From IMG/VR virus record IMGVR_UViG_648276644_000006: a stretch of 25,376 bases of DNA; one strand, written 5' to 3'. A program made the translations under genes and the position numbers. This DNA comes from a virus (Duplodnaviria > Heunggongvirae > Uroviricota > Caudoviricetes). The notes beneath the pieces are model-generated. The model was given only the letters and a program-made list of their open reading frames with translations. It did no database searches and had not been told where the DNA came from. Positions 1 through 16,190 of this stretch are shown piece after piece (the first letter of the stretch is position 1; each line of letters opens with the position of its first letter).

Positions 1-1053
1 TTACGGGGTAATGCCAACCGCTGCCGCCACTTTGTCGCCACTTGGCAGCGTTGCCAGAGGATTGAAACGGAGCGCCGTTTCCAGATGATCCGGTGCCAGA
101 TGTGCGTAACGCATAGTCATTTTTATATCGTGGTGTCCGAGAATTTTTTGTAAGGCCAGAATGTTTCCACCCGACATCATGAAGTGCGCCGCAAACGTAT
201 GGCGCAGAACGTGTGTGAGTTGACCGCGAGGGAGCACGATAGACGTTTTTTCCATCACGGATAAAAATTGAAAATAGCAGTCTGTGAAGAAATTGAACCC
301 ATCAAGCGCCATGATCTCTTCGTAAAGCTCTTTACTGATAGGGATGCTTCTGTTTTTCTTCCCCTTCGTTCTGACAAAGGTAATTCGGTATTTGGTCACC
401 TGTGAGCGAGTAAGATTTACGGCTTCACGCCAGCGTGCGCCTGTGCTTAAGCATATCTTAACTACCAGTGCCAGAATTGGGTCCTGACGTTTGCAATCAG
501 CCAGCAATTCAACAATCTGCTCATGGGTAAGCCATGCCATCTCTTTTTCTGCGATGGTGAATTTTCGCATGTTCTCCAGTGGGTTCGGATACGACCATTC
601 GCCCAGACGGGATAGTTCGCTAAAAACACTACTTAGATAGCTTTGCTCCAGGTTAATGGTGACCGGGCTTGCTCCTTTCTTCCATTTCTCGCTGAAGTAG
701 ATCTCGCCTGTCAGGCGTTTATCTCGATAGTGGGCAAACATTTTAGAGGTGAGATCGGTTGCAAGAGGATTGCCCAGAGCGTCAACCATCAACAGCAATT
801 TGTCATAGACATGCTGCCCAGCTGTCAGAGATTTACCATGTAGTTTGAACCATAGTTCAACCACGTCTTTCAGTGTTCGACGATCCACTGATTCACCCAG
901 CCAGGGCTTTGCTTCGGTTTCTTCCATCGTGTGACGCTCAAAAGCCAGAGCTTCGCCTTTGGTGGCGAATTGTTTACGCACACGACGTCCACTACGTCCG
1001 GCGGGGTAACATTCGCAAAGCCATTTTCCTGTGGTGAGTTTTCGTACTGCCAT
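1..1053 (-). CDS. int: Phage tyrosine integrase (P2/186 family), 350 aa, complete; stop codon at window bases 1-3
   Basis: Translation carries the conserved tyrosine-recombinase C-terminal region (CLSTGARWREA ... LRHTFAAHFMMSGGNILALQKILGHHDIKMTMRYAHLAP) and sits next to a leftward repressor gene as in P2-like prophages. Confidence 0.9.
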   Translation of the reverse strand: MAVRKLTTGKWLCECYPAGRSGRRVRKQFATKGEALAFERHTMEETEAKPWLGESVDRRTLKDVVELWFKLHGKSLTAGQHVYDKLLLMVDALGNPLATDLTSKMFAHYRDKRLTGEIYFSEKWKKGASPVTINLEQSYLSSVFSELSRLGEWSYPNPLENMRKFTIAEKEMAWLTHEQIVELLADCKRQDPILALVVKICLSTGARWREAVNLTRSQVTKYRITFVRTKGKKNRSIPISKELYEEIMALDGFNFFTDCYFQFLSVMEKTSIVLPRGQLTHVLRHTFAAHFMMSGGNILALQKILGHHDIKMTMRYAHLAPDHLETALRFNPLATLPSGDKVAAAVGITP

Positions 1054-1058
1054 AAAAA

Positions 1059-1078
1059 AGCCCTCATATCAGAGGGCT
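1059..1078 (-). terminator. Putative intrinsic terminator for the minus-strand cargo gene, immediately upstream of the int start codon
   Basis: Inverted repeat agccctc / gagggct (7-bp stem, 6-nt loop) at 1059-1078; on the minus strand it is followed by a T6 run (plus-strand A6 at 1054-1059) and then the int ATG. Confidence 0.4.
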
Positions 1079-1136: not shown

Positions 1137-2813
1137 CTAAGCAACATGCAGTTCATCGTTGGCGGAAGTTGCTGCTTTGCGCTCTTGCTCAATCGCCAGT
1201 GACTCTCTATATTCTTTCGCTTCCGCAAACATTGTCCATTGTGCGTTGATGTTCATATCTTCAATAACAGACTTAATTTCTTTAATATTTACGTTGAAAA
1301 ACTCTTTTCGTGAGTTAATTTTATTGACCTGTTTTTCGTTGAAGACTTTATGCAGATGATTTTCTAATGATGGTGCATCATCACTATAAATCATCGCATG
1401 AACATCGAACGAAAAAGGAACACTAGCATCACCGAGTTCACGAACACGATCAAGTGGTTCAAGGCGGCGTGTCATTCCAATTTTATATACATCTTCGCCA
1501 AATGAGCCAATATTACTAATTATATAAACGTGGCCTGATCTAGTTTGTTGAGCCATAGAAATAGCTCGTTGGTTTTTAGCTTCAGCTTCTTCATATTTTA
1601 ACTGTAGTTCAGCTATTTTTTGCTCTAAAGCTAAGCGTTGTTCTTCATTTGCAAGCATAAGCTCTTTTGTTGCTTTATTTATAGCTTGCTGAATAGCTTT
1701 CTCTTCTTTTTCAGCTTCTTTTATCGCTTTTTCATACTCCCTACGAGCTCTTTCCTCTTCACGAAGTTGTTCTTTAATCCTTCTTTGCTCTTCTTTTTCT
1801 TCGAGCATAATTTCATTAACTGCAACTCCCCATTTTAGCTCGTTGAGTCGAGCTTGAAGATAGATGTCACTTATTTTTGCGGACCTAAAGGCAGAACCAT
1901 TGTAATTTACAAGTTGAAACGCATCTTTTATCTCTTGGGAAAGTTTTCCAAAATTGTTGTGTTTGACTTTTGATAAAATACTGTCAACTCTTCCATTGAA
2001 GGCATCTAAAACAAAGTTGATAGCAGTATTACGCCTGTTTTGTTCAACATAATCACACGAAGCAGCTTTATTAGTTTTTATTAATGATTTTGTTAACTCC
2101 CTGGCTTTTTGTAATTCCTTACCTGCATCTGTAAACTCATAATTTTCTGCCAATTCATCGAGAACGCTACGGTTAGGGATGATCCATTCATCACCATAAC
2201 CTTCAATTTTATTTTTCATTGATTTGGCAACTGCTTCATATTTTTCTGCAAACTCTTTAGCTTCATATGCTGAACCAGCAATCTCTTTTGCTCTTTCTTC
2301 TGCATCGGAAATAATTTTCACTGCATTGTCATTAGCATTTGAGATCAGCTCATTTGCTTTACTATTGGCATTATCAAGACGTTCTTTAGCTTTCAGGCGT
2401 GCATCGCGAGCGTCTTTAGTAATTGCTATAGCTTCGCTATTAGCGTTGCTTATTTTTATCTGAGCTTGATAATTTGCTTCGTTTACTGTCTTAGCAGCCT
2501 TTATTTGGGCTTCTTCTATTTTTTGCTTGGCTATTGAGTCTGCATTTTTTATCTTATTCTCTGCTTCCATCACTGCGCTGTGCAATTCTACGTATTGCCA
2601 TAATGGCGCAGCTCGTCCTTCAAGCTCTGATAGATCTCGTACAGTCTGTGCTAATTCTTCTTGATTTTCTTTCAGTTGGTTGGAAAGGGCTATGTTGTTA
2701 GCTGTCAAGGTATTTATAGCCGCTTTATATTTTTTGCTTTGCTTAAATAATATTACAGCTAGAATGGGGGCGAGAAATGCTAATAAGAATATAACGATGG
2801 AAAATGAATTCAT
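1137..2813 (-). CDS. Cargo protein, 558 aa: N-terminal transmembrane anchor, long coiled-coil/low-complexity region, C-terminal T5orf172 (GIY-YIG-like nuclease superfamily) domain; DUF4041-like architecture; candidate superinfection-exclusion/defence protein
   Basis: Hydrophobic N-terminus MNSFSIVIFLLAFLAPILAVILF; Ala/Lys/Glu/Asn-rich heptad-like repeats; C-terminal motif GHVYIISNIGSFGEDVYKIGMTRRLEPLDRVRELGDASVPFSFDVHAMIYSDDAPSLENHLHKVFNEKQVNKINSRKEFFNV typical of T5orf172/MUG113 domains. Gene is strongly AT-rich by eye and starts 20 bp after the cI stop, with an AAGGA Shine-Dalgarno upstream. Confidence 0.75.
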   Translation of the reverse strand: MNSFSIVIFLLAFLAPILAVILFKQSKKYKAAINTLTANNIALSNQLKENQEELAQTVRDLSELEGRAAPLWQYVELHSAVMEAENKIKNADSIAKQKIEEAQIKAAKTVNEANYQAQIKISNANSEAIAITKDARDARLKAKERLDNANSKANELISNANDNAVKIISDAEERAKEIAGSAYEAKEFAEKYEAVAKSMKNKIEGYGDEWIIPNRSVLDELAENYEFTDAGKELQKARELTKSLIKTNKAASCDYVEQNRRNTAINFVLDAFNGRVDSILSKVKHNNFGKLSQEIKDAFQLVNYNGSAFRSAKISDIYLQARLNELKWGVAVNEIMLEEKEEQRRIKEQLREEERARREYEKAIKEAEKEEKAIQQAINKATKELMLANEEQRLALEQKIAELQLKYEEAEAKNQRAISMAQQTRSGHVYIISNIGSFGEDVYKIGMTRRLEPLDRVRELGDASVPFSFDVHAMIYSDDAPSLENHLHKVFNEKQVNKINSRKEFFNVNIKEIKSVIEDMNINAQWTMFAEAKEYRESLAIEQERKAATSANDELHVA

Positions 2814-2833
2814 TTTTAAATCCTTTTACTATA

Positions 2834-3430
2834 TTAATTTGAAACTATTGTACTTCTTATACAAGCAACTACTTCAATATCAGAAAATGCACATTCAAAG
2901 CTATTCTCTGTACTTGTAATTTTAATCATACCTTTTGGAAGCTTTGTGATTTTTCGAATGGAATAGGTTCCGTCGATGTTGATTAACCAGTGCCCATCAA
3001 GTACTTCAGAAAATTTTTGATCACAAATGTATGTGACGAGCCCATCCTGAATAACAATTGGTGATGAAAGATTTGCAGGAAGAAATGATGAATCGAAGAC
3101 ATATGAACCATCTTCAATCATTTTGCCTGCGGTAAGGCGAAACTTGGCAAGCTCTTCTGTAGCTGCTGTCAGCGAGCTTTGCTTAAGGCCTTGCCCGGTG
3201 GTTAACCATTTCAGTGAGGTTCCTGTTTCAAGAGCACATTGGATTATCCAGTCTGCAGGAAACGTATCCCGCAAATACCTGTTCGCCAGAGTGCTTTTTG
3301 ATACTTCCAAGTGATCAGCTAAAGCCTGTCGTGTCGTAAAGCCATAAGCTTCGACTAATCGCTCAATCGCAGCCTTACCACCTTTATTGGGATTTATTTT
3401 GATCTCATTTGGGTACTTTGATGTTGACAT
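2834..3430 (-). CDS. cI: Phage CI repressor, 186-type (HTH N-terminal domain plus C-terminal oligomerisation domain), 198 aa
   Basis: ERLVEAYGFTTRQALADHLEVSKSTLANRYLRD ... CALETGTSLKWLTTGQG matches the 186 CI-type HTH domain family; leftward orientation next to int; divergent from the early operon. Confidence 0.85.
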   Translation of the reverse strand: MSTSKYPNEIKINPNKGGKAAIERLVEAYGFTTRQALADHLEVSKSTLANRYLRDTFPADWIIQCALETGTSLKWLTTGQGLKQSSLTAATEELAKFRLTAGKMIEDGSYVFDSSFLPANLSSPIVIQDGLVTYICDQKFSEVLDGHWLINIDGTYSIRKITKLPKGMIKITSTENSFECAFSDIEVVACIRSTIVSN

Positions 3431-3477
3431 ATCTCTTTTGCGATCCTAGTATCAATTTTGTCCCCATTTGGGTACTT
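3406..3477. promoter_or_regulatory. Lysogeny switch region: two identical 13-mers catttgggtactt (3406-3418 and 3465-3477) flanking a promoter-like element; candidate CI operator sites
   Basis: Exact 13-bp direct repeat 59 bp apart, one copy inside the first codons of cI and one just downstream of the predicted pR -10; a degenerate third copy (cattttgggata) lies at 3751-3762 between the Apl-like and CII-like genes. Confidence 0.4.
3424..3452 (+). promoter_or_regulatory. Putative early rightward promoter (pR-like): -35 TTGACA (3424-3429), 17-bp spacer, -10 TAGTAT (3447-3452)
   Basis: Perfect -35 hexamer with 17-bp spacing to a 4/6 -10 hexamer, about 70 bp upstream of the Apl-like start codon; the -35 overlaps the cI start codon on the other strand. 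Confidence 0.45.
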
Positions 3478-3525
3478 GTCACGATTACTACAGGCTCACC
3501 ACAAGCCAATAGGAGATGTTGCATC

Positions 3526-3747
3526 ATGACCCCTAACATTTCAATAACTCTGAATACGCCACATGTCACAATTGAGCGTTATAGCGAACTTACTGGTCTT
3601 TCTATCGACACCATCAACGATATGCTGGCTGATGGTCGCATCCCTCGCCATCGCCTTCGGAAAGACAAGAAAAGAGAAAAGGTAATGATCAACCTTGCTG
3701 CTCTTACCGTTGATGCACTTACTGATTGCAATGTTGTATTCAACTAG
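3526..3747 (+). CDS. Apl/Cox-like excisionase and switch regulator (small HTH protein), about 73 aa
   Basis: First gene of the rightward operon facing cI; AGGAGA Shine-Dalgarno 9 bp upstream of ATG 3526; small basic protein ([12 protein letters not shown]). Start chosen inside the longer ORF 3409-3747. Confidence 0.55.
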
Positions 3748-3779
3748 TTCCATTTTGGGATACATCAGGGGTGTCGACT

Positions 3780-4289
3780 ATGTTTGATTACCAAGTTTCC
3801 AAACATCCACATTTTGACGAAGCCTGTCGTGCATTCGCACTGCGCCACAACCTGGTGCAACTGGCAGAACGTGCAGGCATGAATGTACAGATTCTGCGGA
3901 ACAAGCTGAACCCAGCTCAACCTCATTTATTAACCGCACCAGAAATCTGGTTGCTTACCGATCTGACTGAAGATTCAACGCTGGTAGATGGCTTTCTGGC
4001 ACAGATTCACTGCCTGCCATGTGTACCGATTAATGAGGTGGCAAAAGAGAAACTGCCGCATTATGTCATGAGTGCAACCGCAGAGATCGGGCGTGTTGCT
4101 GCAGGTGCGGTATCCGGCGATGTAAAAACCAGTGCAGGTCGTCGTGATGCTATCAGCAGCATTAACTCTGTAACACGGCTGATGGCGCTGGCCGCTGTTT
4201 CATTGCAGGCCCGTTTACAGGCTAATCCTGCGATGGCGAGTGCAGTTGATACCGTTACTGGCCTCGGTGCTTCATTCGGTTTGCTGTGA
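3780..4289 (+). CDS. cII: CII-like transcriptional activator of lysogeny (186 CII family), 169 aa
   Basis: [45 protein letters not shown] ... [27 protein letters not shown] resembles 186 CII as I recall it; the length from ATG 3780 equals the 169 aa of 186 CII; position after the apl-like gene. Confidence 0.7.
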
Positions 4290-4296
4290 GGTGCTT

Positions 4297-4497
4297 ATGC
4301 TGACGAAAGAACCATCATTTGCATCGCTGCTGGTAAAACAAAGCCCGGCAATGCACTACGGTCACGGCTGGATCATGGGGGAGGATGGTAAACGCTGGCA
4401 TCCGTGCCGTTCACAGGATGAATTGCTGGCAGAACTATCTACGAAAAAACGGGGGAACAAATGGCTATTGAAGGCGCTGCGGCAACTGTTCCATTAA
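4297..4497 (+). CDS. Hypothetical early-operon protein, 66 aa
   Basis: ORF with GAGGTG Shine-Dalgarno-like sequence before ATG 4297; overlaps the next gene by 37 nt. No recognisable domain. Confidence 0.4.
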   Translation: MLTKEPSFASLLVKQSPAMHYGHGWIMGEDGKRWHPCRSQDELLAELSTKKRGNKWLLKALRQLFH

Positions 4498-4802
4498 GCC
4501 CCGGTGAACGCCTGAATGGACTTAATCACATTGCGGAGTTAAGGGCGAAAGTTTTTGGCCTGAATATTGAGTCAGAGCTTGAGCGGTTTATTAAAGATAT
4601 GCGTGATCCACGGGATATCAATAATGAACAAAATAAACGAGCACTGGCTGCCATATTCTTTATGGCAAAAATTCCAGCTGAACGTCATAGCATCAGCATT
4701 AATGAGCTGACCACTGACGAAAAGCGGGAGCTGATTAAAGCAATGAATCATTTTCGTGCAGTGGTGAGCTTATTTCCCAGACGGCTAACCATGCCGAATT
4801 AA
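4461..4802 (+). CDS. Hypothetical early-operon protein, 113 aa
   Basis: ORF with GGGGGA Shine-Dalgarno-like sequence upstream of ATG 4461; backbone-like composition. Confidence 0.55.
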   Translation: MAIEGAAATVPLSPGERLNGLNHIAELRAKVFGLNIESELERFIKDMRDPRDINNEQNKRALAAIFFMAKIPAERHSISINELTTDEKRELIKAMNHFRAVVSLFPRRLTMPN

Positions 4803-5103: not shown

Positions 5104-5330
5104 TGGCTGATGCAATGGATCTCGTACAGCAGCGCGTTGAAGAAGAACGCCAGCGCCATATCCGTGCTGCCCGTGCCAAAACGCCGGGCGTGTCCCGCGT
5201 GCTTTGCGTTGAGTGTGAAGCGCCAATTCCGCCAGCACGCCGCCGTGCCATTCCGGGTGTGCAGCTTTGCATTACATGTCAGGAAATCGCAGAGCTGAAA
5301 GGCAAACATTACAACGGAGGTGCTGTATGA
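5103..5330 (+). CDS. TraR/DksA-family C4 zinc-finger protein, 75 aa
   Basis: CVEC-x17-CITC four-cysteine spacing characteristic of the DksA/TraR zinc finger; translationally coupled to flanking genes. Confidence 0.75.
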   Translation: MADAMDLVQQRVEEERQRHIRAARAKTPGVSRVLCVECEAPIPPARRRAIPGVQLCITCQEIAELKGKHYNGGAV

Positions 5331-6184
5331 GCACCATCTTGAAATGGGCGGGAAATAAAACCGCCGTAATGTCCGAACTGAAAAAACATCTTCCTGCTGG
5401 TCCGCGACTAGTTGAACCTTTCGCGGGTTCCTGTGCTGTGATGATGGAGACGGATTATCCCTGCTATCTGGTTGCGGATATTAATCCTGATTTAATCAAC
5501 CTCTATAAAAAGGTTGCCGCTGATTGTGAATCGTTTATATCTCGCGCCAAAGTTTTATTTGAGATCGCAAACAGGGAGGTGGCTTATTACAACATAAGGC
5601 AGGAGTTTAATTACTCAACTGAAATTACTGATTTCATGAAAGCGGTATATTTCCTGTATCTCAATCGTCACGGTTACCGTGGGTTATGTCGCTATAACAA
5701 GAGCGGGCATTTCAACATTCCCTACGGTAATTATAAAAATCCGTATTTCCCTGAAAAAGAAATTCGCGCTTTTGCAGAAAAAGCCCAGCGAGCAACGTTT
5801 ATCTGCGCCAGCTTTGATGAAACGCTGGCGATGTTGAAGGCGGGGGATGTGGTGTATTGCGATCCGCCTTATGACGGTACGTTTTCCGGCTATCACGCTG
5901 ACGGCTTTACTGAAGATGACCAGTATCACCTGGCATCCGTTCTTGAACATCGGTCATCAGAAGGACATCCGGTCATTGTTTCTAACAGTGACACATCCCT
6001 GATCCGTTCGCTGTATCGCAATTTTACTCACCACTATATCAAGGTAAAACGCAGCATCGGCGTAGCAGCTGGTGAGAGTAAATCAGCAAAAGAAATCATT
6101 GCTGTTTCCGGGCCGCGCTGCTGGGTGGGATTTGATTATTCGCGTGGCGTGGATAGTTCTGCCGTGTACGGAGTACGTGCATGA
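5327..6184 (+). CDS. dam: Orphan DNA adenine (N6) methyltransferase, Dam family, 285 aa
   Basis: N-terminal SAM-binding region (LKWAGNK ... [10 protein letters not shown]) and the catalytic DPPY motif (VYCDPPYDG) line up with E. coli Dam; no adjacent restriction endonuclease gene; GGAGG Shine-Dalgarno before ATG 5327. Confidence 0.9.
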
Positions 6185-8034
6185 GCCATGCCGATATGAG
6201 CAACTGCTGCGGCTTTAACGAGGCTGCCGCATCGTTCTCATGGAACAGCCCGAAAAAGGCCATTAACCCTTATCTGGACCCGGCGGAAGTTGCGCCGGTT
6301 TCTGCGCTTTCAAACCTGATCACTCTGTACGCTGCCGATAACGAGCAGGAACAACTGCGCCGCGAGGCACTGAGTGATCAGGTCTGGGAGCGTTATTTCT
6401 TTAATGAATCCCGTGATCCTGTCCAACGCGAAATAGAGCAGGATAAGCTCATTAGCCGGGCAAAGTTGGCGCATGAGCAGCAGCGTTTTAACCCGGACAT
6501 GGTCATTCTGGCAGACGTCAGCGCCCAGCCCTCCCATATCAGCAAGCCGCTGATGCAACGTATTGAATACTTCAGCAGCCTGGGCAGGCCAAAGGCTTAT
6601 TCCCGCTATTTACGTGAGACGATTAAGCCATGTCTGGAACGACTGGAGCATGTACGCGACAGCCAGCTATCTGCATCTTTTCGTTTTATGGCAAGCCATG
6701 TAGGGCTGGACGGCCTGCTGATTCTGCCTGAAATGAGTCAGGATCAGGTGAAACGCCTGTCTACCCTTGTCGCTGCGCATATGAGCATGTGCCTTGATGC
6801 AGCTTGTGGTGATTTGTATGCCACCGATGACGTTAAGCCAGAAGAAATCCGCAAGACATGGGAAAAGGTGGCAGCGGAAACCCTGCGTCTGGATGTCATC
6901 CCGCCTGCGTTTGAGCAACTCCGTCGGAAAAGAAACCGCCGTAAACCCGTGCCCTATGAACTCATTCCGGGTTCGCTGGCGCGTATGTTGTGCGCCGACT
7001 GGTGGTACCGGAAATTATGGAAAATGCGTTGCGAATGGCGGGAAGAGCAGTTGCGTGCTGTCTGCCTGGTCAGCAAAAAAGCATCTCCCTATGTCAGCTA
7101 TGAAGCCGTGATGCATAAACGTGAGCAGCGCCGCAAGTCACTGGAGTTTTTCCGTTCTCATGAACTGGTGAACGAAGAGGGCGACACGCTGGATATGGAA
7201 GACGTGGTAAACGCCAGCAGCAGCAACCCGGCGCACCGCCGCAATGAGATGATGGCCTGTGTTAAAGGTCTGGAGCTTATCGCGGAAATGCGCGGTGACT
7301 GCGCCGTTTTCTACACCATTACCTGTCCGTCACGTTTCCATTCCACGCTCAATAACGGCAGACCAAACCCAACCTGGACAAATGCGACGGTAAGACAAAG
7401 CAGCGATTATCTGGTCGGCATGTTTGCTGCATTTCGTAAGGCGATGCACAAAGCCGGGTTGCGCTGGTATGGCGTGCGGGTGGCTGAGCCGCATCATGAC
7501 GGTACAGTTCACTGGCACCTGTTGTGTTTCATGCGCAAAAAAGACCGCCGCGCCATTACTGCATTGTTGCGTAAGTTTGCCATCCGTGAAGACCGCGAGG
7601 AACTGGGTAATAACACTGGTCCACGCTTTAAATCTGAGCTGATAAACCCGCGCAAAGGAACGCCGACAAGCTACATCGCGAAATACATCAGTAAGAACAT
7701 TGACGGGCGTGGTCTGGCTGGCGAGATCAGCAAGGAAACGGGTAAATCCCTGCGTGATAACGCTGAATACGTTAATGCCTGGGCGTCTCTGCATCGTGTT
7801 CAGCAATTCCGCTTCTTTGGTATTCCGGGACGTCAGGCTTACCGTGAACTTCGCTTGCTGGCTGGTCAGGCGGCAAGGCAACAGGGTGACAAAAAGCAGG
7901 TGCGCCGGTACTGGATAACCCGCGTCTTGATGCCATTCTGGCTGCTGCTGATGCTGGTGTTTTGCCACCTACATCATGAAGCAGGGCGGCGTACTGGTTC
8001 CCCGCAAATATCACCTCATCAGAACCGCTTATGA
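6181..8034 (+). CDS. A: Replication initiation endonuclease A (P2 gpA / 186 A family, rolling-circle initiator), N-terminal and central part; reading frame is lost near 7895
   Basis: 617-aa ORF in the A position after dam, with the gpA-like catalytic region (HWHLLCF, tyrosine-rich YIAKYISKN segment). The last roughly 45 codons ([26 protein letters not shown]...) look like out-of-frame translation. Confidence 0.8.
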
Positions 8035-8593
8035 AATCAACGAAGAGCCAACCGCCTATGGCGATCACGGTATTCGTATTTATGGCATCTGGTCACCCAT
8101 TGCAGAGGGCAAGATCTGCACTCATGCAGTGAAGTGGAAAATGGTTCGTAAGGCCGTTGACGTTCAGGAGGCGGCAGCCGACCAGGGCGCTTGCGCCCCT
8201 TGGACTCGTGGCAATAACTGTCCCCTTGCTGAAAATTTGAACCAACAGGAGAAAGATAAATCAGCTGATGGGGACCCCAGAACGGACATTACCAGCATGG
8301 ATGACAAGGAGTTGCACGATTACCTGCACAGTATGAGCAAAAAAGAGCGCCGGGAACTGGCAGCAAGGTTACGCCTGGTGAAACCGAAACGGCGTAAAGA
8401 CTACAAACAGCGAATTACAGACCATCAGCGACTGCAGCTCGTGTATGAGCTGAAGTCCAGAGGATTTGATGGCAGCGAGAAAGAGGTTGATTTACTCCTT
8501 CGCGGAGGCAGTATTCCGTCAGGAGCAGGCCTGCGTATCTTCTATCGGAACCAGCGTTTGCAGGAAGATGATCAGTGGCGGAACCTGTATTAA
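7976..8593 (+). CDS. A: C-terminal portion of replication protein A, encoded in a different frame from the upstream A ORF (frameshifted gene or sequencing error)
   Basis: 205-aa ORF overlapping the end of the 6181-8034 ORF in another frame; combined length of the two pieces is in the range of intact A proteins; the third frame across 7890-7976 is also open and protein-like. Confidence 0.6.
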
Positions 8594-8685: not shown

Positions 8686-8705
8686 TACTGTAAATATAAA
8701 CAGTG
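8686..8705 (+). promoter_or_regulatory. LexA (SOS) box overlapping an AT-rich promoter-like region
   Basis: TACTGTAAATATAAACAGTG matches the CTGT-N8-ACAG SOS box consensus with the AT-rich centre; lies about 45 bp upstream of the small ORF and DinI-like gene. Confidence 0.6.
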
Positions 8706-8746: not shown

Positions 8747-8935
8747 ATGCAGGACTATTTTTTGGAGTCTTTGAAGCTCCAGCGCATTGATTTTTTTCTT
8801 AAGCTTGTAGCGGCTAGTGAGTGTAGTGATGAAGAGAAGGGGCTGGCTTTGCAGTGGGTTTCTGAACTAACAGATGAACTCATGGCAAAAATCAGAACCC
8901 ACGAATACAACCGCTCAATGGATGTCATCAGTTGA
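8747..8935 (+). CDS. Small SOS-regulated hypothetical protein, 62 aa (possible Tum-like antirepressor position)
   Basis: Strong AGGAGGA Shine-Dalgarno 4-6 nt upstream of ATG 8747, downstream of the LexA box; the longer 96-aa ORF from 8645 would start upstream of the box and is less likely. Confidence 0.45.
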   Translation: MQDYFLESLKLQRIDFFLKLVAASECSDEEKGLALQWVSELTDELMAKIRTHEYNRSMDVIS

Positions 8936-8945
8936 GGTGACTTTT

Positions 8946-9179
8946 ATGCGCATTGAAATAATGATCGATAAAGAGCAGAAGATTAGCCAGTCTATCCTGG
9001 ACGCCCTTGAATCCGAGCTTTACCGCAATCTGCGCCCCCTGTATCCCAAAACGGTAATCCGTATCCGTAAAGGTAGCTCTAACGGTGTGGAACTTACCGG
9101 ACTGCAACTGGACGAAGAAAGAAAACAAGTGATGAAAATTATGCAGAAAGTGTGGGAAGACGACAGCTGGCTGCATTAA
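8946..9179 (+). CDS. DinI-family protein (SOS-response modulator of RecA), 77 aa
   Basis: MRIEIMIDKEQKISQSILDALESELYRNL ... VWEDDSWL resembles DinI/MsgA (MRIEV..., acidic WxxxDxW tail); GAGGTG Shine-Dalgarno before ATG 8946. Confidence 0.8.
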   Translation: MRIEIMIDKEQKISQSILDALESELYRNLRPLYPKTVIRIRKGSSNGVELTGLQLDEERKQVMKIMQKVWEDDSWLH

Positions 9180-9399: not shown

Positions 9400-9507
9400 T
9401 TTACCAATAATAACCTTACAATGTACACTACCTATTGAATTTTCCATAGTTGGCCTTTGGCTCTACTTACCATCTATGTTTATGTATTTTATCAAAATGG
9501 ACTAAAA

Positions 9508-11400
9508 ATGCACAATACGTACATCAAAGACTATATAGAATATTACCTTAGCCTTAAAACTGAACCTCAATACGCCATTATGCTTAAAGGTGCTTGGGGA
9601 TCAGGTAAAACTTGGTTCATTGAACGAGTTCTTGAAGAATATAAGCAAAAGCATTCAGAGTTCAAATTTCTTAAAGTGAGTTTGTATGGCGTCAACTCTA
9701 TTGAGCAGATTGAAGATGAGTTCTATCGTCAACTTCATCCTATTCTATCAAACAAAGCCCTTATCTTTGGTGCAAATGTACTAAAAAATACGCTTAAGGC
9801 TACTTTCAAGATCGATTTCAATGGCGATAATAAGTCTGACGTAGATGTCAATGCCAGTGTCCCCACCATTAATCTTAGCGACTTTAGCAGAGAACCAGAT
9901 GGTTTTGTGCTGGTCTTTGATGATATCGAGAGAGCTGGTATAGATTTACCAATCTTATTTGGATATATAAATCACTTTGTAGAAGTAAACGGATACAAAG
10001 CGATCCTGGTTGCCAATGAAGAAGAAATAATCAACAGAGAAAAGCGAATAAATAATGATGATGAGAAATCTAGCAGTGAATACATAAGAACAAAAGAAAA
10101 GCTTGTAGGTAAAACATTTGAAGTAACGTCAGATTTACCTAGTGCTTGTAATGTTTTCTTGGGCGTAATTAGTAGTTTACACGTAGCTAATATATTTAAA
10201 GAAGATATGCAGACCATAGAACACCTCTATGTGTCGGCGAAATATAATAATCTAAGACATTTGAGGCAGTTCTTTCTTGATGTACAACGCATCATTTCCC
10301 TTTTGGGAGATAAATATGTCAGCAACGACGATTTTATGAAAGTATTTTTCCAGCAGTTATTAATTTTCTCGATGGAGTACCGGGGAGGGAACCTTAACTA
10401 CGAGGATTTCAATTCAATCGGCAATGTAAATTATAGTATGTTTTTAGATAAAGGGCGTACCAAAACTAAGTATGACATGATCGTCGAGAAATATTCATCA
10501 CCTGTATTAACCGAGACGTTACTGGATGGTGCGTACTGGAGAGAGCTAATCTGTGATGGAAAGGTAACGCATGATCTTCTCGCTCAGCTGGATATTACGC
10601 GATTTTTTAGAAGCACCGATGCCCAAGCATGGGAGTATTTGTGGAACTATCGAGAACTTAATGAAACTATGCTTAATGAACAGTACGCCATTGCCAAGGA
10701 TAATCTATTTTCAGGTAAGATCACTTCCTTAGGTGAACTCCTGATGACCGCGAGTATTTTGCTGGCATTGGCGAAAGAAGGTTTAACCACAGATGCTGTT
10801 GATGACATTATAAATGAGACAAAACATCATATAGATATTTATTACAATGGATTAGGACCTGAAGATATACATCAGGAGTATGCGCAAAGACATTATAATG
10901 AGTTAATGGCATGGCGTGGCTTTGGTTTTCTTGACAGGGATAGCGATGAATTCAAACTCATTATTGAGCATATTAAGATAGCGCAGAAGAAACGGTTTGA
11001 TGAATCAATTCCGGAGTTTGCATTGAAGTTCAGCGATGAGTTGCAAAGAGGGAATTTATCGTTTGTATCTGAATTGTGTCATTCTAATAATAGGCAGCTA
11101 AATCTTCATAACGTGCCTTTTTTACACTTGGTTTCTCCTGAAGTTTTCATTGAAAGCTATAGGAAACTTGACCCAATCATCATGAGGAAACTGGCATTTA
11201 GCTTGAGGGATCGTTATTCTGATAGGGATGCCAGAACCAGACTGACCGAAGAATACAACTGGTTGATTAGCCTAAAAGAGATAGCTGTAGATTTCACTCA
11301 AAACGCAGCCAATAACTCCTTTCAGGTTTTTCATGTAAAGTTTTTTATTGACTATGCACTAACTAATGCAATCAAATTATTTACTGAGGGAACTGATTAA
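9508..11400 (+). CDS. KAP-family P-loop NTPase, about 630 aa (start uncertain; an alternative TTG lies at 9457); candidate defence/cargo gene
   Basis: N-terminal Walker A in the KAP-type form GAWGSGKT (LKGAWGSGKTWFIERV); a hydrophobic stretch followed by two acidic residues (FVLVFDDIERAG), Walker B-like; large size; gene and flanks are conspicuously AT-rich compared with the phage backbone. Confidence 0.65.
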   Translation: MHNTYIKDYIEYYLSLKTEPQYAIMLKGAWGSGKTWFIERVLEEYKQKHSEFKFLKVSLYGVNSIEQIEDEFYRQLHPILSNKALIFGANVLKNTLKATFKIDFNGDNKSDVDVNASVPTINLSDFSREPDGFVLVFDDIERAGIDLPILFGYINHFVEVNGYKAILVANEEEIINREKRINNDDEKSSSEYIRTKEKLVGKTFEVTSDLPSACNVFLGVISSLHVANIFKEDMQTIEHLYVSAKYNNLRHLRQFFLDVQRIISLLGDKYVSNDDFMKVFFQQLLIFSMEYRGGNLNYEDFNSIGNVNYSMFLDKGRTKTKYDMIVEKYSSPVLTETLLDGAYWRELICDGKVTHDLLAQLDITRFFRSTDAQAWEYLWNYRELNETMLNEQYAIAKDNLFSGKITSLGELLMTASILLALAKEGLTTDAVDDIINETKHHIDIYYNGLGPEDIHQEYAQRHYNELMAWRGFGFLDRDSDEFKLIIEHIKIAQKKRFDESIPEFALKFSDELQRGNLSFVSELCHSNNRQLNLHNVPFLHLVSPEVFIESYRKLDPIIMRKLAFSLRDRYSDRDARTRLTEEYNWLISLKEIAVDFTQNAANNSFQVFHVKFFIDYALTNAIKLFTEGTD

Positions 11401-11462
11401 CATTTTGTTGATTAACATAGGTAATATTATTAGAAGTACTAGACATGGTCAGTAAAATTATT

Positions 11463-11490
11463 AAAGTCCGCTTCGCTCGAAGCGGACTTT
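11463..11490. terminator. Hairpin terminator downstream of the KAP NTPase gene (perfect 13-bp inverted repeat)
   Basis: aaagtccgcttcg ct cgaagcggacttt; GC-rich stem with T-rich flanks on both strands, so it could terminate in either direction. Confidence 0.5.
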
Positions 11491-11685
11491 GTGCTTTATA
11501 AAAACGAGAGTTTTGTTTTTCAAGCGGTCATTCGGTTACGGGATTTCACTTCCCCCGTAAGTGCATGACTATGCCGCATGAGATCGCATGATCGTTTGCG
11601 GATCGTTTTTGCTAAGGTCCGCCAGAACTGGCGGGCTTTTGCGTAGATCATGCAGGTGCATGAAAACCACTACATAAAGTGGGCA

Positions 11686-11704
11686 GGCGTGGCGGGGATA
11701 CGAG
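11686..11704 (+). other. cos-like motif (putative cohesive-end site of a P2/186-type genome)
   Basis: GGCGTGGCGGGGATACGAG shares its first 13 nt with the 186 cohesive-end sequence GGCGTGGCGGGGAAAGCAT as I recall it (P2: GGCGAGGCGGGGAAAGCAC); lies in the expected interval between the right-arm cargo and portal gene Q. Confidence 0.3.
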
Positions 11705-11834
11705 CGCGCGCTAACTCTTGGCTTTGTTTCATAATCAAAAATGTGATCATTGAGATTATTCTTAATTTTATGTTTGTCTATGAAATATCATTTCGCTTAA
11801 CATTGTTTGAGTTAGGACTACATGAGAATAAAGA

Positions 11835-12410
11835 ATGCTTTTACCCGTAAGTGTTACATCGTGTGGCTTGTATCACCCCTACTGGCATTTGGGAGAGCGC
11901 AACCCTCATAGCGATGAACTATCAAGGCAGATGATGGATTTTAAGGATGAAAATAATCGTAATCATCAAAGGGCTATTAACCGTTTTTCTCGATTAGCTA
12001 TAGATAAGGTTGGGCGGTTAGTAATCAGAGGTGGCGGTGGGCGTTTTGTTGAGTCTCCTTTTTCGATAGCAGTCGTCCCATCTCACACTGAAGGCAGAAT
12101 TTCACCGGCTTTGATTGAGGTCGCCGAGCGAATCGTAAATGTTCACCGTCGGGGCATTGTTGATTGCTGTTTGGAAAGAACACGCACTGTTCCTAGCGCA
12201 CATCGTGAAGGAGGAGATCGCTCAATTACTGGTCACATGTCTAGTATCAGAGTTAGGGGTGGTAACCTCATGGGGCGAAATGTGTTACTACTAGATGATG
12301 TTAAAACAACAGGCGGTAGTTTGTCTGCGTGTTTTTATTTACTGGAGTCTGCAGGAGCTGGAGTTATAATGCCATTAGCTCTGCTAGAAACTGCAAACTA
12401 TGAGGAGTAG
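11835..12410 (+). CDS. Phosphoribosyltransferase (PRTase) domain protein, ComF-like, 191 aa (start uncertain; in-frame ATGs also at 11931 and 11934)
   Basis: Canonical PRPP-binding loop VLLLDDVKTTGGSLSAC near the C-terminus; glycine-rich loop RGGGGR upstream; stop overlaps the start of the next gene. Confidence 0.7.
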   Translation: MLLPVSVTSCGLYHPYWHLGERNPHSDELSRQMMDFKDENNRNHQRAINRFSRLAIDKVGRLVIRGGGGRFVESPFSIAVVPSHTEGRISPALIEVAERIVNVHRRGIVDCCLERTRTVPSAHREGGDRSITGHMSSIRVRGGNLMGRNVLLLDDVKTTGGSLSACFYLLESAGAGVIMPLALLETANYEE

Positions 12411-13374
12411 CAAAGTGCACTCAGAAGAATTAAAAAATACACTTGGATTAGCTATTCAAATCGGGAAGCTAGCATCTGATCAAAGTGTATTGAAATTCTT
12501 TGAGCTTATTGATTTTGATGTTATTCGTGATATACGCGACTTAACTGAGATGGTTAATAGCCACGGGTTTCTAAAAGATAAAATATCTGAGACTGATTTT
12601 CTAATAGCGAATGCTGAATTGGAGAACCACCATGTTAATGGTGTGGAGCTAATACCATATGGGTCTGAATTCTATCCTCTTAGTTTAGCGTTTACTCCTA
12701 ATCCACCATCAATTCTCTACATAAAAGGGGATAAAAGTATACTAAAAGAATTGCCGGGTGTCGCAATTGTAGGATCCCGTGATACTTCCCCTGCAGGGGA
12801 AGAAATAACGAGGCGAATCACTAATCAGATAGTGTCTGCTGGGTATATTGTTGTAAGTGGGTTAGCAATAGGCACTGATGCGAATGCTCATAAGGCAACG
12901 TTACAAGCAAAAGGAAAAACCATTGCTGTCTTGGCGCATGGTCTTGAGGAGGCTAAGCCGAAGCAAAACAGTCGACTTGCTCAAGAGATTCTGGATAAAG
13001 GTGGTGCATGGATTTCTGAGTATCCTATGGGGCGACCGGCCCAGAAACAATCATTTGTACAAAGAAATCGGATACAAGTTGGATTATCTGCAGGTTCAAT
13101 TTTAATCGAGGCTGCGTTAAATAGCGGAACGATAACTCAAGCTGAGTTTGCAAATAAGGCGAAAAGACCAGTGTTTGCGGTTGTACCTCACCTACCTAAT
13201 AATCCGCTTAATCTTAATTGTGAGGGAACAGTTGATTTAGTTAAGAGCAACATGGCTAGAGCGTTAAAAACAAAACGGGATTATGATGATGTGATTATGA
13301 TCATAAATGAGTCTCGGGAGTATTTGTTAGAGCTAAAATGGCCAGGGAAACAGAGTACATTAGACTTGATTTAA
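12400..13374 (+). CDS. DprA/Smf-like (SLOG/Rossmann-fold DNA-processing protein A family) protein, 324 aa
   Basis: YPLSLAFTPNPPSILYIKGDKSILKELPGVAIVGSRDTSPAGEE ... VVSGLAIGTDANAHKATLQAKGKTIAVLAHGLEE ... QRNRIQVGLSAGSILIEAALNSGTITQAEFANKAKRPVFAV follows the DprA domain pattern (PP-LF-GxxxxL; VAIVGSR; SGxAxGxDxxAH; TIAVLxxGL; RNRI; SGTxxTAxxA). ATG 12400 overlaps the PRTase stop by 11 nt (ATGAGGAGTAG); an alternative GTG at 12415 has a GAGGAG Shine-Dalgarno. Confidence 0.8.
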   Translation: MRSSKVHSEELKNTLGLAIQIGKLASDQSVLKFFELIDFDVIRDIRDLTEMVNSHGFLKDKISETDFLIANAELENHHVNGVELIPYGSEFYPLSLAFTPNPPSILYIKGDKSILKELPGVAIVGSRDTSPAGEEITRRITNQIVSAGYIVVSGLAIGTDANAHKATLQAKGKTIAVLAHGLEEAKPKQNSRLAQEILDKGGAWISEYPMGRPAQKQSFVQRNRIQVGLSAGSILIEAALNSGTITQAEFANKAKRPVFAVVPHLPNNPLNLNCEGTVDLVKSNMARALKTKRDYDDVIMIINESREYLLELKWPGKQSTLDLI

Positions 13375-13398: not shown

Positions 13399-14424
13399 CT
13401 AAATTTGATATCTCTCGAATTTTATAATTTCTTCACCGCTCCAATGATTAAATTCTTTCATTCTTTTTTGTAATGGTAATAATTCATTTTTCACAAATAC
13501 CTTACTAGCTTTTTCTACATCCCCAAATCCCCCAACATTATTAGGCATTATCCCCATCATCTGTGGCGGAACGCGATGTGCTGCCATCATGTCATCCCGG
13601 CTCACGTTCTTGATATTTAGAAACTCATCCTTCGCCGCAACTTCTGACAAAGGGATGATCTGAAGGCCGTCCTTTTTGCCGTTAGGCGAGTACATAAACA
13701 GGTTGCGGAAGTTACCCGGACCTTTGGCACTTTTCATTGCATTGCGGAGGTTGTTCACGTCCTCCTGGTTCTGCGCAGCATCGGTCATGTACATGATGAA
13801 GCCTGCATGACTACCGTTAATGTAATACTTGCGGCGGAACAGCGTGGCGGACTCATTGAGCAGGGCGGACGGAATGGCAGAAAGATAGCCGGGCAGGCCG
13901 TAGATCTCCTGGTTAATGTCCGGTTCCATCAGATGAAAAATGCTGCCTTTCGTGAACTGATACGGCTGGGTTGTCATACCGTATTGCACAAACCAGTAGG
14001 TATCCAGGTCTAACCCGCGTCGGGTGTATTTTGCCAGAGCAGGCTCAAGGGCGATAACTTCACCGAAGCGGTTCGTGCGTTTCTCCAGGTAGGCGTTACC
14101 AAATACCAGATAGTCCTGCACAAAACGTGAAAAAGCCTGCTGGCTGAGCAGCGGGTGAGGGATGTAGGTACTGGTCAGAATGTTGCATTTTACTGCAATT
14201 GGTGAGCTGTGATGCACGGCAGCGCGGAAGGTTCGTGCCAGTCCGTCAAAGCTGACGGGCGGCTCATACCAGCGGTCCATCTGTACGCATTCCACATAGT
14301 CCAGCAGTTCACGGCGGTCCAGAACAGGAACGGGATCGCCAAAGCTGAATGCTTCGGCTGAAGTCTGGCTTTTATGCTTGAGCTGATTCGTCGCCGCAGC
14401 GCGGTTTTTCTTACTCTTTCCCAT
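13399..14424 (-). CDS. Q: Portal protein (P2 gpQ homologue), 341 aa from ATG (ORF track extends 1 codon to a TTG)
   Basis: Size, position and orientation match P2 Q; translation is portal-like; start ATG overlaps the stop of the terminase gene by 1 nt. Confidence 0.9.
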   Translation of the reverse strand: MGKSKKNRAAATNQLKHKSQTSAEAFSFGDPVPVLDRRELLDYVECVQMDRWYEPPVSFDGLARTFRAAVHHSSPIAVKCNILTSTYIPHPLLSQQAFSRFVQDYLVFGNAYLEKRTNRFGEVIALEPALAKYTRRGLDLDTYWFVQYGMTTQPYQFTKGSIFHLMEPDINQEIYGLPGYLSAIPSALLNESATLFRRKYYINGSHAGFIMYMTDAAQNQEDVNNLRNAMKSAKGPGNFRNLFMYSPNGKKDGLQIIPLSEVAAKDEFLNIKNVSRDDMMAAHRVPPQMMGIMPNNVGGFGDVEKASKVFVKNELLPLQKRMKEFNHWSGEEIIKFERYQI

Positions 14425-16190
14425 CAAAAAATCTCCACAATATTGCTGGTATTGGCGGATTCGCCCTGCAGCGGTTCGTTAAACAGTGCGTGCATCGTTG
14501 CCCAGGCCAGATCGGCGTGGCTGGCTTCTTCGCTGCGGCTGGCTTCATAGGTCGGGCGGTTGCCGCTGGCGGTGGTGGCGCGACGGATTGCCATGAATGA
14601 CTGCGCAATGTCGGTGTGCCCGGCGTCAAACTCCAGACGGCGGTGGCTGATAATGTCGTAGGCCTTGAGTACCAGGGCGTTTTTAACATTGGGGTTGTAG
14701 ACAAACTCCCGGACGGCAGGAAAGAACGCTTTCACGTTCTCATAAACCCCGTGACCAACGCCGGTTGAGTCGATACCGATATAGGTCACGTTGTACTGTT
14801 CGGTGAGTTTTTTGATGGCGTCAGCCTGGGCGCGGAAGTCCATCCCGCGCCACTGGTGACGCTCAAGAATGCGGAACTTACCACCCGGCACGGCTGGCGG
14901 AGCCACCACCACGCATCCGGCACTGTCGCCGTTCTGCGTACCTTTTGCCGGGTCATAACCGATCCACACTTCGCGCCAGCCAAACGGGCGCAGGGCCAGT
15001 GCATGAAAGTCGGTCCAGACTTCCCAGCTGTCCACCATGCACGCCTGCAGTTCGCTGAGCGGGAACACGGACGCGAGATCGTCCACGAACTCGCACATCA
15101 GCAGGTTCTGGTATTCGTCCGGGCTGTACTCCATGCGTAGCTGGTCGAGGTCGAACAGGTTACAGCCGCCGCGCACCGCATCTTCTACGGTGACTATCTG
15201 GCGGTATTGCCCGTCTGCGCACAGCAGGCCGGGGGCCAAATTGCTGTGGGACAGGTCGATGTCCACCTTGTCAGCTTTGTTGCGTCCACGGTTGAACAGC
15301 GCACCGGACCAGAACGGATAAGCACTGTGGGTCAGGCTGGATGGCGTGGAAAAATAGGTTTGTCGCCATTTTTTGTGAATAGCCATCCCGGAAGCCACTT
15401 TGCGCAGCTCCTGGAATTTCGGTATCCAGAAATATTCATCCAGATACAGGTTGCCGTGATAACTCTGGGCCGTGCGGGCATTGGTGCCGAGGAAGTAAAG
15501 CGTGGCTCCGTTAGGAAGCACCATCGGATCGCCTTTTAGCTCCACCTCGACTTCTTTGGCGAAGTCGATGATGTATTGTTTAAAGACGTGGGCCTGAGCC
15601 TTACTGGCAGAAAGGAAAATCTGGTTACGTCCGGTAAGCAGGGCGTCAATCAGGGCTTCACGGGCAAAATAGAAGGTCGCGCCGATCTGGCGTGACTTCA
15701 GCAGGTTGCGGATGCGGTTGGTTTTTCCGGCTTCCCACCAGTGGCGCTGGTAGTTGAACATGGAGGAATGGAAGATTTCTTCCAGCTTCTCAATCTGCTC
15801 ATCGGTGAAAACATTCTTTTCCGGCTGACGGCGTGGGCCTTTATTGCGGTTGGCGACGTTAGGGTTTAAGTCGGCTTCGTTGCCGCCATTGTTAAACTTG
15901 CCGATCCGCGCGTGGCGCTCAGACTGGCGCGCCAGCAGGTCAATCTCTTTGAAATCTTTCCCTTCTTTGTGCTCCTTCATAATGAGCTGGCAGTAGCGTG
16001 CGGCGGTGGTGAGCTGCATCTGATCCAGCGGCCCATAGTCACCCCACTTGTCGCGTTTTTTCCAGCTGTGAACGGTTGCAACTTTCTCGCCCAGCATTTC
16101 AGCAATGCGGGCTACGCGGTATCCCTGAAAGTACAGCAGCATGGCCTGCCGACGGGGATCGAGATCTGCGGGTGTCAGTGTGGTGTTCAT
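14424..16190 (-). CDS. P: Terminase large (ATPase) subunit (P2 gpP homologue), 588 aa
   Basis: Length matches P2 P (590 aa); leftward Q-P pair divergent from the O-N-M-L operon, as in P2. Confidence 0.9.
   Translation of the reverse strand: MNTTLTPADLDPRRQAMLLYFQGYRVARIAEMLGEKVATVHSWKKRDKWGDYGPLDQMQLTTAARYCQLIMKEHKEGKDFKEIDLLARQSERHARIGKFNNGGNEADLNPNVANRNKGPRRQPEKNVFTDEQIEKLEEIFHSSMFNYQRHWWEAGKTNRIRNLLKSRQIGATFYFAREALIDALLTGRNQIFLSASKAQAHVFKQYIIDFAKEVEVELKGDPMVLPNGATLYFLGTNARTAQSYHGNLYLDEYFWIPKFQELRKVASGMAIHKKWRQTYFSTPSSLTHSAYPFWSGALFNRGRNKADKVDIDLSHSNLAPGLLCADGQYRQIVTVEDAVRGGCNLFDLDQLRMEYSPDEYQNLLMCEFVDDLASVFPLSELQACMVDSWEVWTDFHALALRPFGWREVWIGYDPAKGTQNGDSAGCVVVAPPAVPGGKFRILERHQWRGMDFRAQADAIKKLTEQYNVTYIGIDSTGVGHGVYENVKAFFPAVREFVYNPNVKNALVLKAYDIISHRRLEFDAGHTDIAQSFMAIRRATTASGNRPTYEASRSEEASHADLAWATMHALFNEPLQGESANTSNIVEIF

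Follow-up and report, generated by a model that had tools for sequence, protein, structure and literature searches.

PD-λ-1 was found in E. coli ECOR26 by functional selection (Vassallo et al. 2022, PMC9519451) as a 500-aa protein (RCP76574.1) with DUF4041 at residues 197-252 and T5orf172 at residues 357-448 (PMC9519451 supplement). Its characterisation under the new name SNIPE followed (Saxton et al., Nature 2026, PMC13190303). Here we describe a 558-aa protein encoded in a stretch of 25,376 nucleotides from a virus of the Caudoviricetes (IMG/VR record IMGVR_UViG_648276644_000006), the whole of which is called the window. By sequence comparison this protein is a member of the SNIPE / PD-λ-1 defence family, and it is very probably a SNIPE-type membrane nuclease, a single-protein anti-phage defence that destroys incoming phage DNA at entry; its gene is cargo of a P2/186-like prophage, in the slot between cI and int. 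Published work already covers the family, its mechanism and the hotspot concept, and the gene is already tagged in databases.

SNIPE is an inner-membrane protein with a periplasmic N-terminus, a topology that was shown experimentally, with DUF4041, on the cytoplasmic side, binding DNA and contacting the tape measure protein (PMC13190303). It associates with ManYZ and the λ tape measure protein and cuts λ DNA during injection, prophage induction and plasmid transformation being unaffected, and the E414A substitution abolishes both defence and nuclease toxicity (PMC13190303). Its protection is weak against most siphoviruses and absent against BASEL myoviruses and podoviruses; gain-of-function mutations lie in DUF4041 and the linker, and the escape mutations of Bas14 lie in the tape measure protein (PMC13190303). 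Moreover, the N-terminal region of the family was described as a hypervariable “adapter”, with one transmembrane (TM) helix in the first 70 residues of 59% of homologues and two in 7% (PMC13190303). As for the genomic position, a cI–int hotspot has been described in K139-like P2-related Vibrio phages (Rousset 2022, PMC9122126), P2-like prophages have hotspots at the GpA–GpQ (old/tin) and Z/fun loci (Rousset 2022; Vassallo 2022), and an “integrase–primase” hotspot has also been reported (NAR 2026, PMC13586616).

In the window, the gene, its parts and its neighbours are arranged as follows.

1..1053, minus strand: P2-family tyrosine integrase gene (int), downstream flank of the slot (Pfam Int_N and Phage_integrase)
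1059..1078, minus strand: AGCCCTC-TGATAT-GAGGGCT plus T6, a terminator-like hairpin that borders the cargo slot on the right (terminator scan, RNA fold)
1137..2813, minus strand: SNIPE-family (PD-λ-1-like) defence gene, 558 aa (open reading frame, PADLOC, Pfam, BLASTP, ratio of nonsynonymous to synonymous substitution rates, dN/dS)
1254..1535, minus strand: GIY-YIG-type nuclease module (T5orf172/MUG113), residues 427-520 (Pfam)
1362..1364, minus strand: codon for E484, aligned with the catalytic E414 of SNIPE (alignment and codon check)
1542..1847, minus strand: long α-helical linker between DUF4041 and nuclease, residues 323-424 (AlphaFold2, AF2)
1848..2015, minus strand: DUF4041 / “SNIPE” Pfam domain PF13250, residues 267-322 (Pfam)
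2205..2744, minus strand: N-terminal helical stalk, residues 24-203, rich in Ala, Lys, Glu and Asn, the fast-evolving “adapter” (AF2, alignment, dN/dS)
2745..2804, minus strand: single N-terminal TM helix, residues 4-23 (Kyte-Doolittle)
2814..2833, minus strand: spacer of 20 nt between cI and the gene, with an AAAGGA ribosome-binding site (sequence)
2834..3430, minus strand: 186-type CI immunity repressor, 198 aa, upstream gene of the presumed operon (Pfam)

The SNIPE-type open reading frame (ORF) opens with ATG and encodes 558 aa in the ORF listing. The repressor is assigned to the 186 type because Phage_CI_repr (E = 8e-32) and Phage_CI_C (E = 4e-27) are both present in its Pfam matches. The first-pass annotation of this DNA had pointed to an AT-rich 558-aa gene on the strand of cI, 20 bp past its stop codon, at a place where P2 and 186 have no gene, and this description holds in full. 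The ATG follows the cI stop after exactly 20 nt, with the Shine-Dalgarno-like AAAGGA 7 nt ahead of it, and the gene has 36.7% GC compared to 49.6% for the whole window and 55.7% for its late-gene half. Unlike the window, phage 186 has cI and int abutting inside the pL/pE lysogenic operon with no gene between them, and the 115 nt from C to int in phage P2 are gene-free.

Several searches place the protein in the SNIPE family. The PADLOC PD-Lambda-1 models PDLC03976 (E = 5e-120, residues 98-550) and PDLC03977 (E = 2e-116) jointly cover residues 98-551, and PHROG 1847, a family of unknown function, matches as well (E = 4e-132). DUF4041 (PF13250) is found at residues 267-322 with E = 3.1e-12 and 46.6 bits against a cut-off of 27, and T5orf172 (residues 427-520, E = 1e-16) and MUG113 (residues 443-520, E = 1.6e-19) are above their gathering thresholds. 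In an exhaustive search, 3,387 family representatives were collected at 50% clustering, 1,412 of them at E ≤ 1e-30. When aligned with 125 diverse representatives, the window protein matches every column conserved at 90% or more, including Y430, G446, R449, R450, E484 and N497. The basic residues R238, K242, K284 and R322, conserved in at least 80% of representatives, are also present, and an N-terminal hydrophobic segment is found in 107 of the 125.

For a direct comparison with SNIPE we used the 500-aa SNIPE-type protein of E. coli 730V1 (L001:4984-6486), which is near-identical to the ECOR26 copy; it begins with MTQTPLLLAI and has E414 within DAPSLEKKLHDVFDKKRVNL (PSLEKK), in agreement with primers oDS30 and oDS93. 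Compared to the ECOR26 primers, the 30-mer of oDS30 has no exact DNA match in the 730V1 copy, and 2 of the last 10 residues differ. BLASTP aligned 291 residues of the window protein (265-555) at 49% identity (E = 2e-76) and returned no match upstream of residue 265. By region, identity to SNIPE is 8/24 in the TM helix, 25% in the stalk, 14/56 in DUF4041, 48% in the linker and 73% in the nuclease, and the catalytic glutamate is kept, SNIPE E414 aligning with E484. Both are single-gene systems with the same order of TM, stalk, DUF4041, helical linker and GIY-YIG nuclease, and in both the TM helix (residues 5-24 in SNIPE, 4-23 here) is followed by a basic cluster; the window protein has 558 aa against the 500 of SNIPE, and its stalk is about 70 aa longer. 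SNIPE W257, where the W257R mutation enhances defence against Bas14, corresponds to K327 in the window protein, and E223, a mutation of which raised Bas14 defence, corresponds to S292. Both are prophage-borne, the 730V1 copy by the ren and nin genes of a lambdoid prophage and the window gene in a P2/186-like cI–int slot.

The architecture that had been read from the sequence at first, namely one N-terminal TM helix, about 300 residues of coiled coil, a DUF4041-like centre and a T5orf172/GIY-YIG-like C-terminus, was recovered except for the coiled coil. The two domain calls are borne out by the Pfam matches given above, both in a search which the first-pass annotation had itself proposed as a check. 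Residues 4-23 form the sole 19-residue Kyte-Doolittle segment above 1.6 (maximum 2.99), and since only 3 residues precede this helix and the basic KQSKKYK follows it, an N-out/C-in topology is predicted. An AF2 model, run on an alignment of 29 sequences with members at least 81% identical, has a mean predicted local distance difference test score (pLDDT) of 52.8. It draws one unbroken helix over residues 3-203, with means over 10-residue blocks of about 60-86 up to residue 170 and 38-46 over residues 171-200, then a mixed region from about residue 204 to 316 in which DUF4041 begins, and further helices at 317-387 and 390-424 (pLDDT 64-78). The long helices therefore stood, as two stretches (about 24-203 and 317-424) flanking DUF4041. 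Heptad periodicity is weak in both, so long helices are shown and a coiled coil is not. As AF2 performs poorly in the globular domains, the GIY-YIG fold and a basic DNA-binding face of the window protein are proposed from sequence. A search of the PDB with the sequence of the C-terminal domain returned chance matches only (E about 0.5).

The gene is under strong purifying selection and is a real gene. Compared with copies in other prophages, its dN/dS is 0.05-0.07 over the whole length, 0.01 in the core (residues 196-520) and 0.14-0.19 in the TM helix and stalk (residues 1-195). Within the 558-aa subfamily, mean pairwise identity is 73-78% in TM and stalk versus 94-95% in the core, an N-terminal divergence that repeats the published variable “adapter” pattern of the SNIPE family. 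A full-length copy is present in 165 of 5,426 complete E. coli genomes (about 3%), and copies of 82-99% identity occur in Klebsiella, Citrobacter, Salmonella, Enterobacter, Raoultella and others. In RefSeq the product appears as “DUF4041 domain-containing protein”, and newer records have “SNIPE associated domain-containing protein”. The phage records OM835953 (KP12) and ON470620 (vB_EcoM-813R9) carry the gene at about 96% DNA identity under the label “chromosome segregation ATPase”, and its JGI names include “vacuolar-type H+-ATPase subunit H”. KP12 is filed under Vequintavirinae, yet its gene-bearing segment is P2/186-like.

The 558-aa type was located in 11 species-representative genomes of enterobacteria; in at least 7 of them it occupies the cI–int slot and in 2 it stands alone between housekeeping genes. 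The standalone copies (80-83% identical, each at 3001-4677) belong to Pseudenterobacter timonensis (L092) and Enterobacteriaceae UBA7338 (L094), where polyprenyl synthetase, MFS transporter and Asp-Al_Ex permease genes are the neighbours and no CI or integrase was found nearby; phage partners are therefore not needed for the gene to work, or at least to persist. A TM-less form of 477 aa (P0053, 164 members; L086 and L087) was rejected as an artefact, as the contigs start within the 5′ part of the gene, some 200 nt before the called start. Several assemblies break at the 5′ end of the SNIPE-type gene.

The simplest reading of the expression signals is that a cI–gene transcript would be made in the lysogen. 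This co-transcription is suggested by the 20-nt spacer, which carries a ribosome-binding site and is too short for a promoter, by the minus-strand scan from the cI start region to the SNIPE-type gene, in which no promoter-like and no terminator-like site was found, and by the hairpin after the gene. This hairpin (1078..1059; RNA fold z = -3.9) is the only terminator-like one on the minus strand in the scan and lies between the SNIPE-type gene and the int ATG.

The mechanism that we propose is carried over, by homology, from the work on SNIPE (PMC13190303). Made in the lysogen from the repressor transcript, the window protein would sit in the inner membrane in an auto-inhibited state, with only its first 3 residues outside the cytoplasm. 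Upon injection by a tailed phage, most likely a siphovirus, the DUF4041 region would bind the entering DNA together with the tape measure protein complex, the stalk and TM helix would help to position the protein at the site of DNA entry, and the GIY-YIG domain would cut the incoming DNA. The cell would survive, which makes this a direct defence, and host DNA and the resident prophage would be spared because only membrane-crossing DNA is targeted. Because TM, stalk and DUF4041 are only about 25% identical to those of SNIPE, the protein probably has another phage range and another membrane partner than SNIPE has (λ and ManYZ). The initial idea of a membrane nuclease surveying incoming DNA at the envelope is thus supported and coincides with the published SNIPE mechanism, the family membership being given by PADLOC, Pfam and BLASTP. 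Some points weigh against our proposal. The parts presumed to set specificity are those in which the protein has diverged from SNIPE, so that targets and phage class are extrapolated; the globular domains of the AF2 model have pLDDT below 50; and expression from the cI transcript rests on spacing and absent consensus signals.

The first-pass annotation had also offered an abortive-infection effector as an alternative. Such an effector would be a nuclease released or activated on infection that degrades host DNA and kills the cell, so that the phage does not spread. SNIPE lacking its TM helix is indeed toxic and cuts the chromosome (PMC13190303), and the homologue in the window has a different stalk and DUF4041. 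Many prophage cargo nucleases are also known to act in this way. Full-length SNIPE, however, provides direct defence, with cells surviving at high multiplicity of infection, unlike those with the abortive control PD-λ-3 (PMC13190303), and the window protein retains the TM anchor and the whole architecture. We therefore do not favour this alternative and regard it as improbable.

It is less probable still, and indeed very unlikely, that the gene is a selfish homing-type endonuclease of the GIY-YIG/T5orf172 kind, or a DNA-binding regulator, inserted between cI and int with no role in defence. Such modules are well established in homing endonucleases and phage DNA-binding proteins of the Pfam GIY-YIG clan, and the gene is AT-rich relative to its backbone. 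Yet the match to the defence family spans about 450 residues, extending beyond the nuclease to include DUF4041 and the linker, a TM anchor is present, and ω is 0.05 across genera. Moreover, the slot in relatives does not behave as an empty or filled homing site; it holds other defence systems, and the cargo-free loci have another int type (53% identity). We give least credence of all to a structural or housekeeping phage protein, as suggested by the deposited labels (“chromosome segregation ATPase” for KP12 and vB_EcoM-813R9, and the V-type ATPase subunit H of JGI) and by weak NCBIfam matches to DivIVA, SMC and V-ATPase E. No Walker A motif was found when the window protein was inspected for one, the gene is absent from P2, 186 and many close relatives with other cargo, and copies exist outside prophages. 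The NCBIfam matches (DivIVA_Wag31, SMC and V-ATPase E) were rejected as composition-driven; they lie in helical regions and score 15-24 bits, with cut-offs of 240-730.

The cI–int slot was surveyed in 80 IMG/VR loci anchored on CI, with anything from 15 nt to about 3 kb between the two genes, and at least 12 classes of cargo were found in related prophages. The SNIPE-type gene accompanies CI proteins that are 84-100% identical to that of the window, and where CI is at most 81% identical (48-81% among those examined) other cargo occupies the slot. This comprises HEC-01 A and B, PDC-M18 A and B, PDC-M11 A and B, a 662-aa OLD/AriA-like ATPase, a Tle1-like phospholipase, an ATP-grasp-like protein and several proteins without a family match, and in some loci a second gene, e.g. 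PDC-S31, stands behind the SNIPE-type gene. By comparison, int is at least 90% identical in nearly all cargo-bearing loci and 83-88% in three, and the only two cargo-free loci have the different int type already mentioned. The cI–int slot is a recognised kind of prophage defence hotspot, a fixed site between conserved genes with varied, mostly defence-related cargo.

Slot proteins with no PADLOC match come from seven sets of loci (L045, L046, L052/L053, L069/L076/L084, L074, L033 and L032). They are the Tle1-like phospholipase of 394 aa, the ATP-grasp-like protein of 339 aa, membrane proteins (359 and 334 aa), proteins without a family (286 and 309 aa) and one of 381 aa that has a CNN-repeat and, at its C-terminus, TM helices. 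Their genes are candidates for as yet uncharacterised defence functions.

A conserved element of about 85 nt (1054-1140 in the window, minus strand) immediately precedes int, regardless of the cargo in the slot. Its three parts are ATGTAT…CATACATTGAC; the palindrome ACTGGTTGTATATACAGT at 1086-1103, a CTG-N10-CAG close to the LexA SOS-box consensus and placed between a TTGAC-type -35 and a TAAATT-type -10; and the GC hairpin and T6 that end at the int ATG and include the GAGG of its likely ribosome-binding site. Hairpin and CTG-N10-CAG palindrome are kept upstream of int in loci with other cargo, the hairpin with compensatory variants, and the element is absent from the two cargo-free loci. We found no published description of it in the literature consulted. 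The element may terminate the cI–cargo transcript and at the same time provide int with an SOS-controlled promoter. A second LexA-box-like palindrome, ACTGTAAATATAAACAGT, is located at 8687-8704 (plus strand), upstream of a 62-codon ORF (8747-8935) and a DinI-family ORF (8946-9179, plus strand; Pfam E = 1e-22), an arrangement similar to that of the tum operon of phage 186, which is under SOS control. Matches to ACTG-N9-ACAGT are confined to these two sites in the window (0.06 expected by chance), and counted by strand there are three of them, the second site being palindromic.

Other features of the window include a methyltransferase gene and a second cargo region.

5267-6184, plus strand: D12-class N6-adenine DNA methyltransferase (Dam-like), early region (Pfam E = 9e-75)
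9457-11400, plus strand: KAP-family P-loop NTPase, PADLOC candidate PDC-S49 (E = 5e-161)
11835-12410, plus strand: ShosT-like member of a Shosta-like pair
12400-13374, plus strand: DprA-like ShosA of the same pair (E = 3e-70)

The last three fill the P2 GpA–GpQ hotspot (9457-13374, plus strand), between gene A and the portal gene (13399-14427, minus strand), with AT-rich cargo of 39% GC. In strain E. coli L73 the SNIPE-type gene is 99.9% identical, but the GpA–GpQ cargo differs and consists of an HNH endonuclease and a dsDNA nuclease-domain protein. The replication gene A of the window is split into ORFs 6181-8034 and 7976-8593 (plus strand); compared to the intact 804-aa gene A of L73, two single-base homopolymer deletions are seen, one in an A-run (about 7890) and one in a T-run (about 7957), and the split reflects either sequencing errors or a prophage no longer able to replicate. 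The early stretch with the methyltransferase is non-essential in phage 186, where it holds other genes, including a PAPS-reductase-like one.

These results add a widespread enterobacterial subfamily to a defence family that was mechanistically solved only in 2026. The conserved nuclease and linker, set against the diverged anchor, stalk and DUF4041, offer a ready comparison for finding the parts that set phage specificity and membrane partner. In enterobacterial 186-like prophages the cI–int slot serves as a site for defence cargo that goes with the immunity type, which matters for predicting the phage susceptibility of clinical E. coli and Klebsiella lysogens. The label “chromosome segregation ATPase” in deposited phage genomes is, like the JGI name, a coiled-coil artefact and is due for replacement. 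Perhaps, and this we put forward only tentatively, the long-stalk prophage-linked subfamily is not a simple copy of SNIPE and the slot has a distinct cargo wiring as well. The subfamily may dock at an inner-membrane entry route other than ManYZ, or may recognise other injection machinery, such as other tape-measure types or the ejection proteins of non-siphoviruses; the wiring would possibly run from cI through cargo and terminator to int behind its own LexA-box-like promoter element. If the protein is indeed not a simple SNIPE copy, it would offer a natural variant in specificity with which to map how nucleases of the SNIPE type distinguish “entering” from resident DNA.

Classical superinfection-exclusion proteins, such as T4 Imm and Sp, HK97 gp15 and P22 SieA, block or misroute injection and have no nuclease. 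They are likewise phage-encoded inner-membrane proteins that act at DNA entry, and some are expressed in the lysogen; the window protein differs in carrying a GIY-YIG nuclease which, by homology, would destroy the entering DNA. Similarly, the P2-like hotspots (GpA–GpQ, Z/fun, the K139-like cI–int and integrase–primase) hold variable cargo at a fixed position, with known and candidate defence systems. Compared to these, the slot described here is part of the lysogenic unit (cI→int) in a 186-like lineage of enterobacteria, its cargo travels with the CI immunity type while int stays conserved, and it ends at the conserved ~85-nt element upstream of int with its LexA-box-like palindrome and hairpin.

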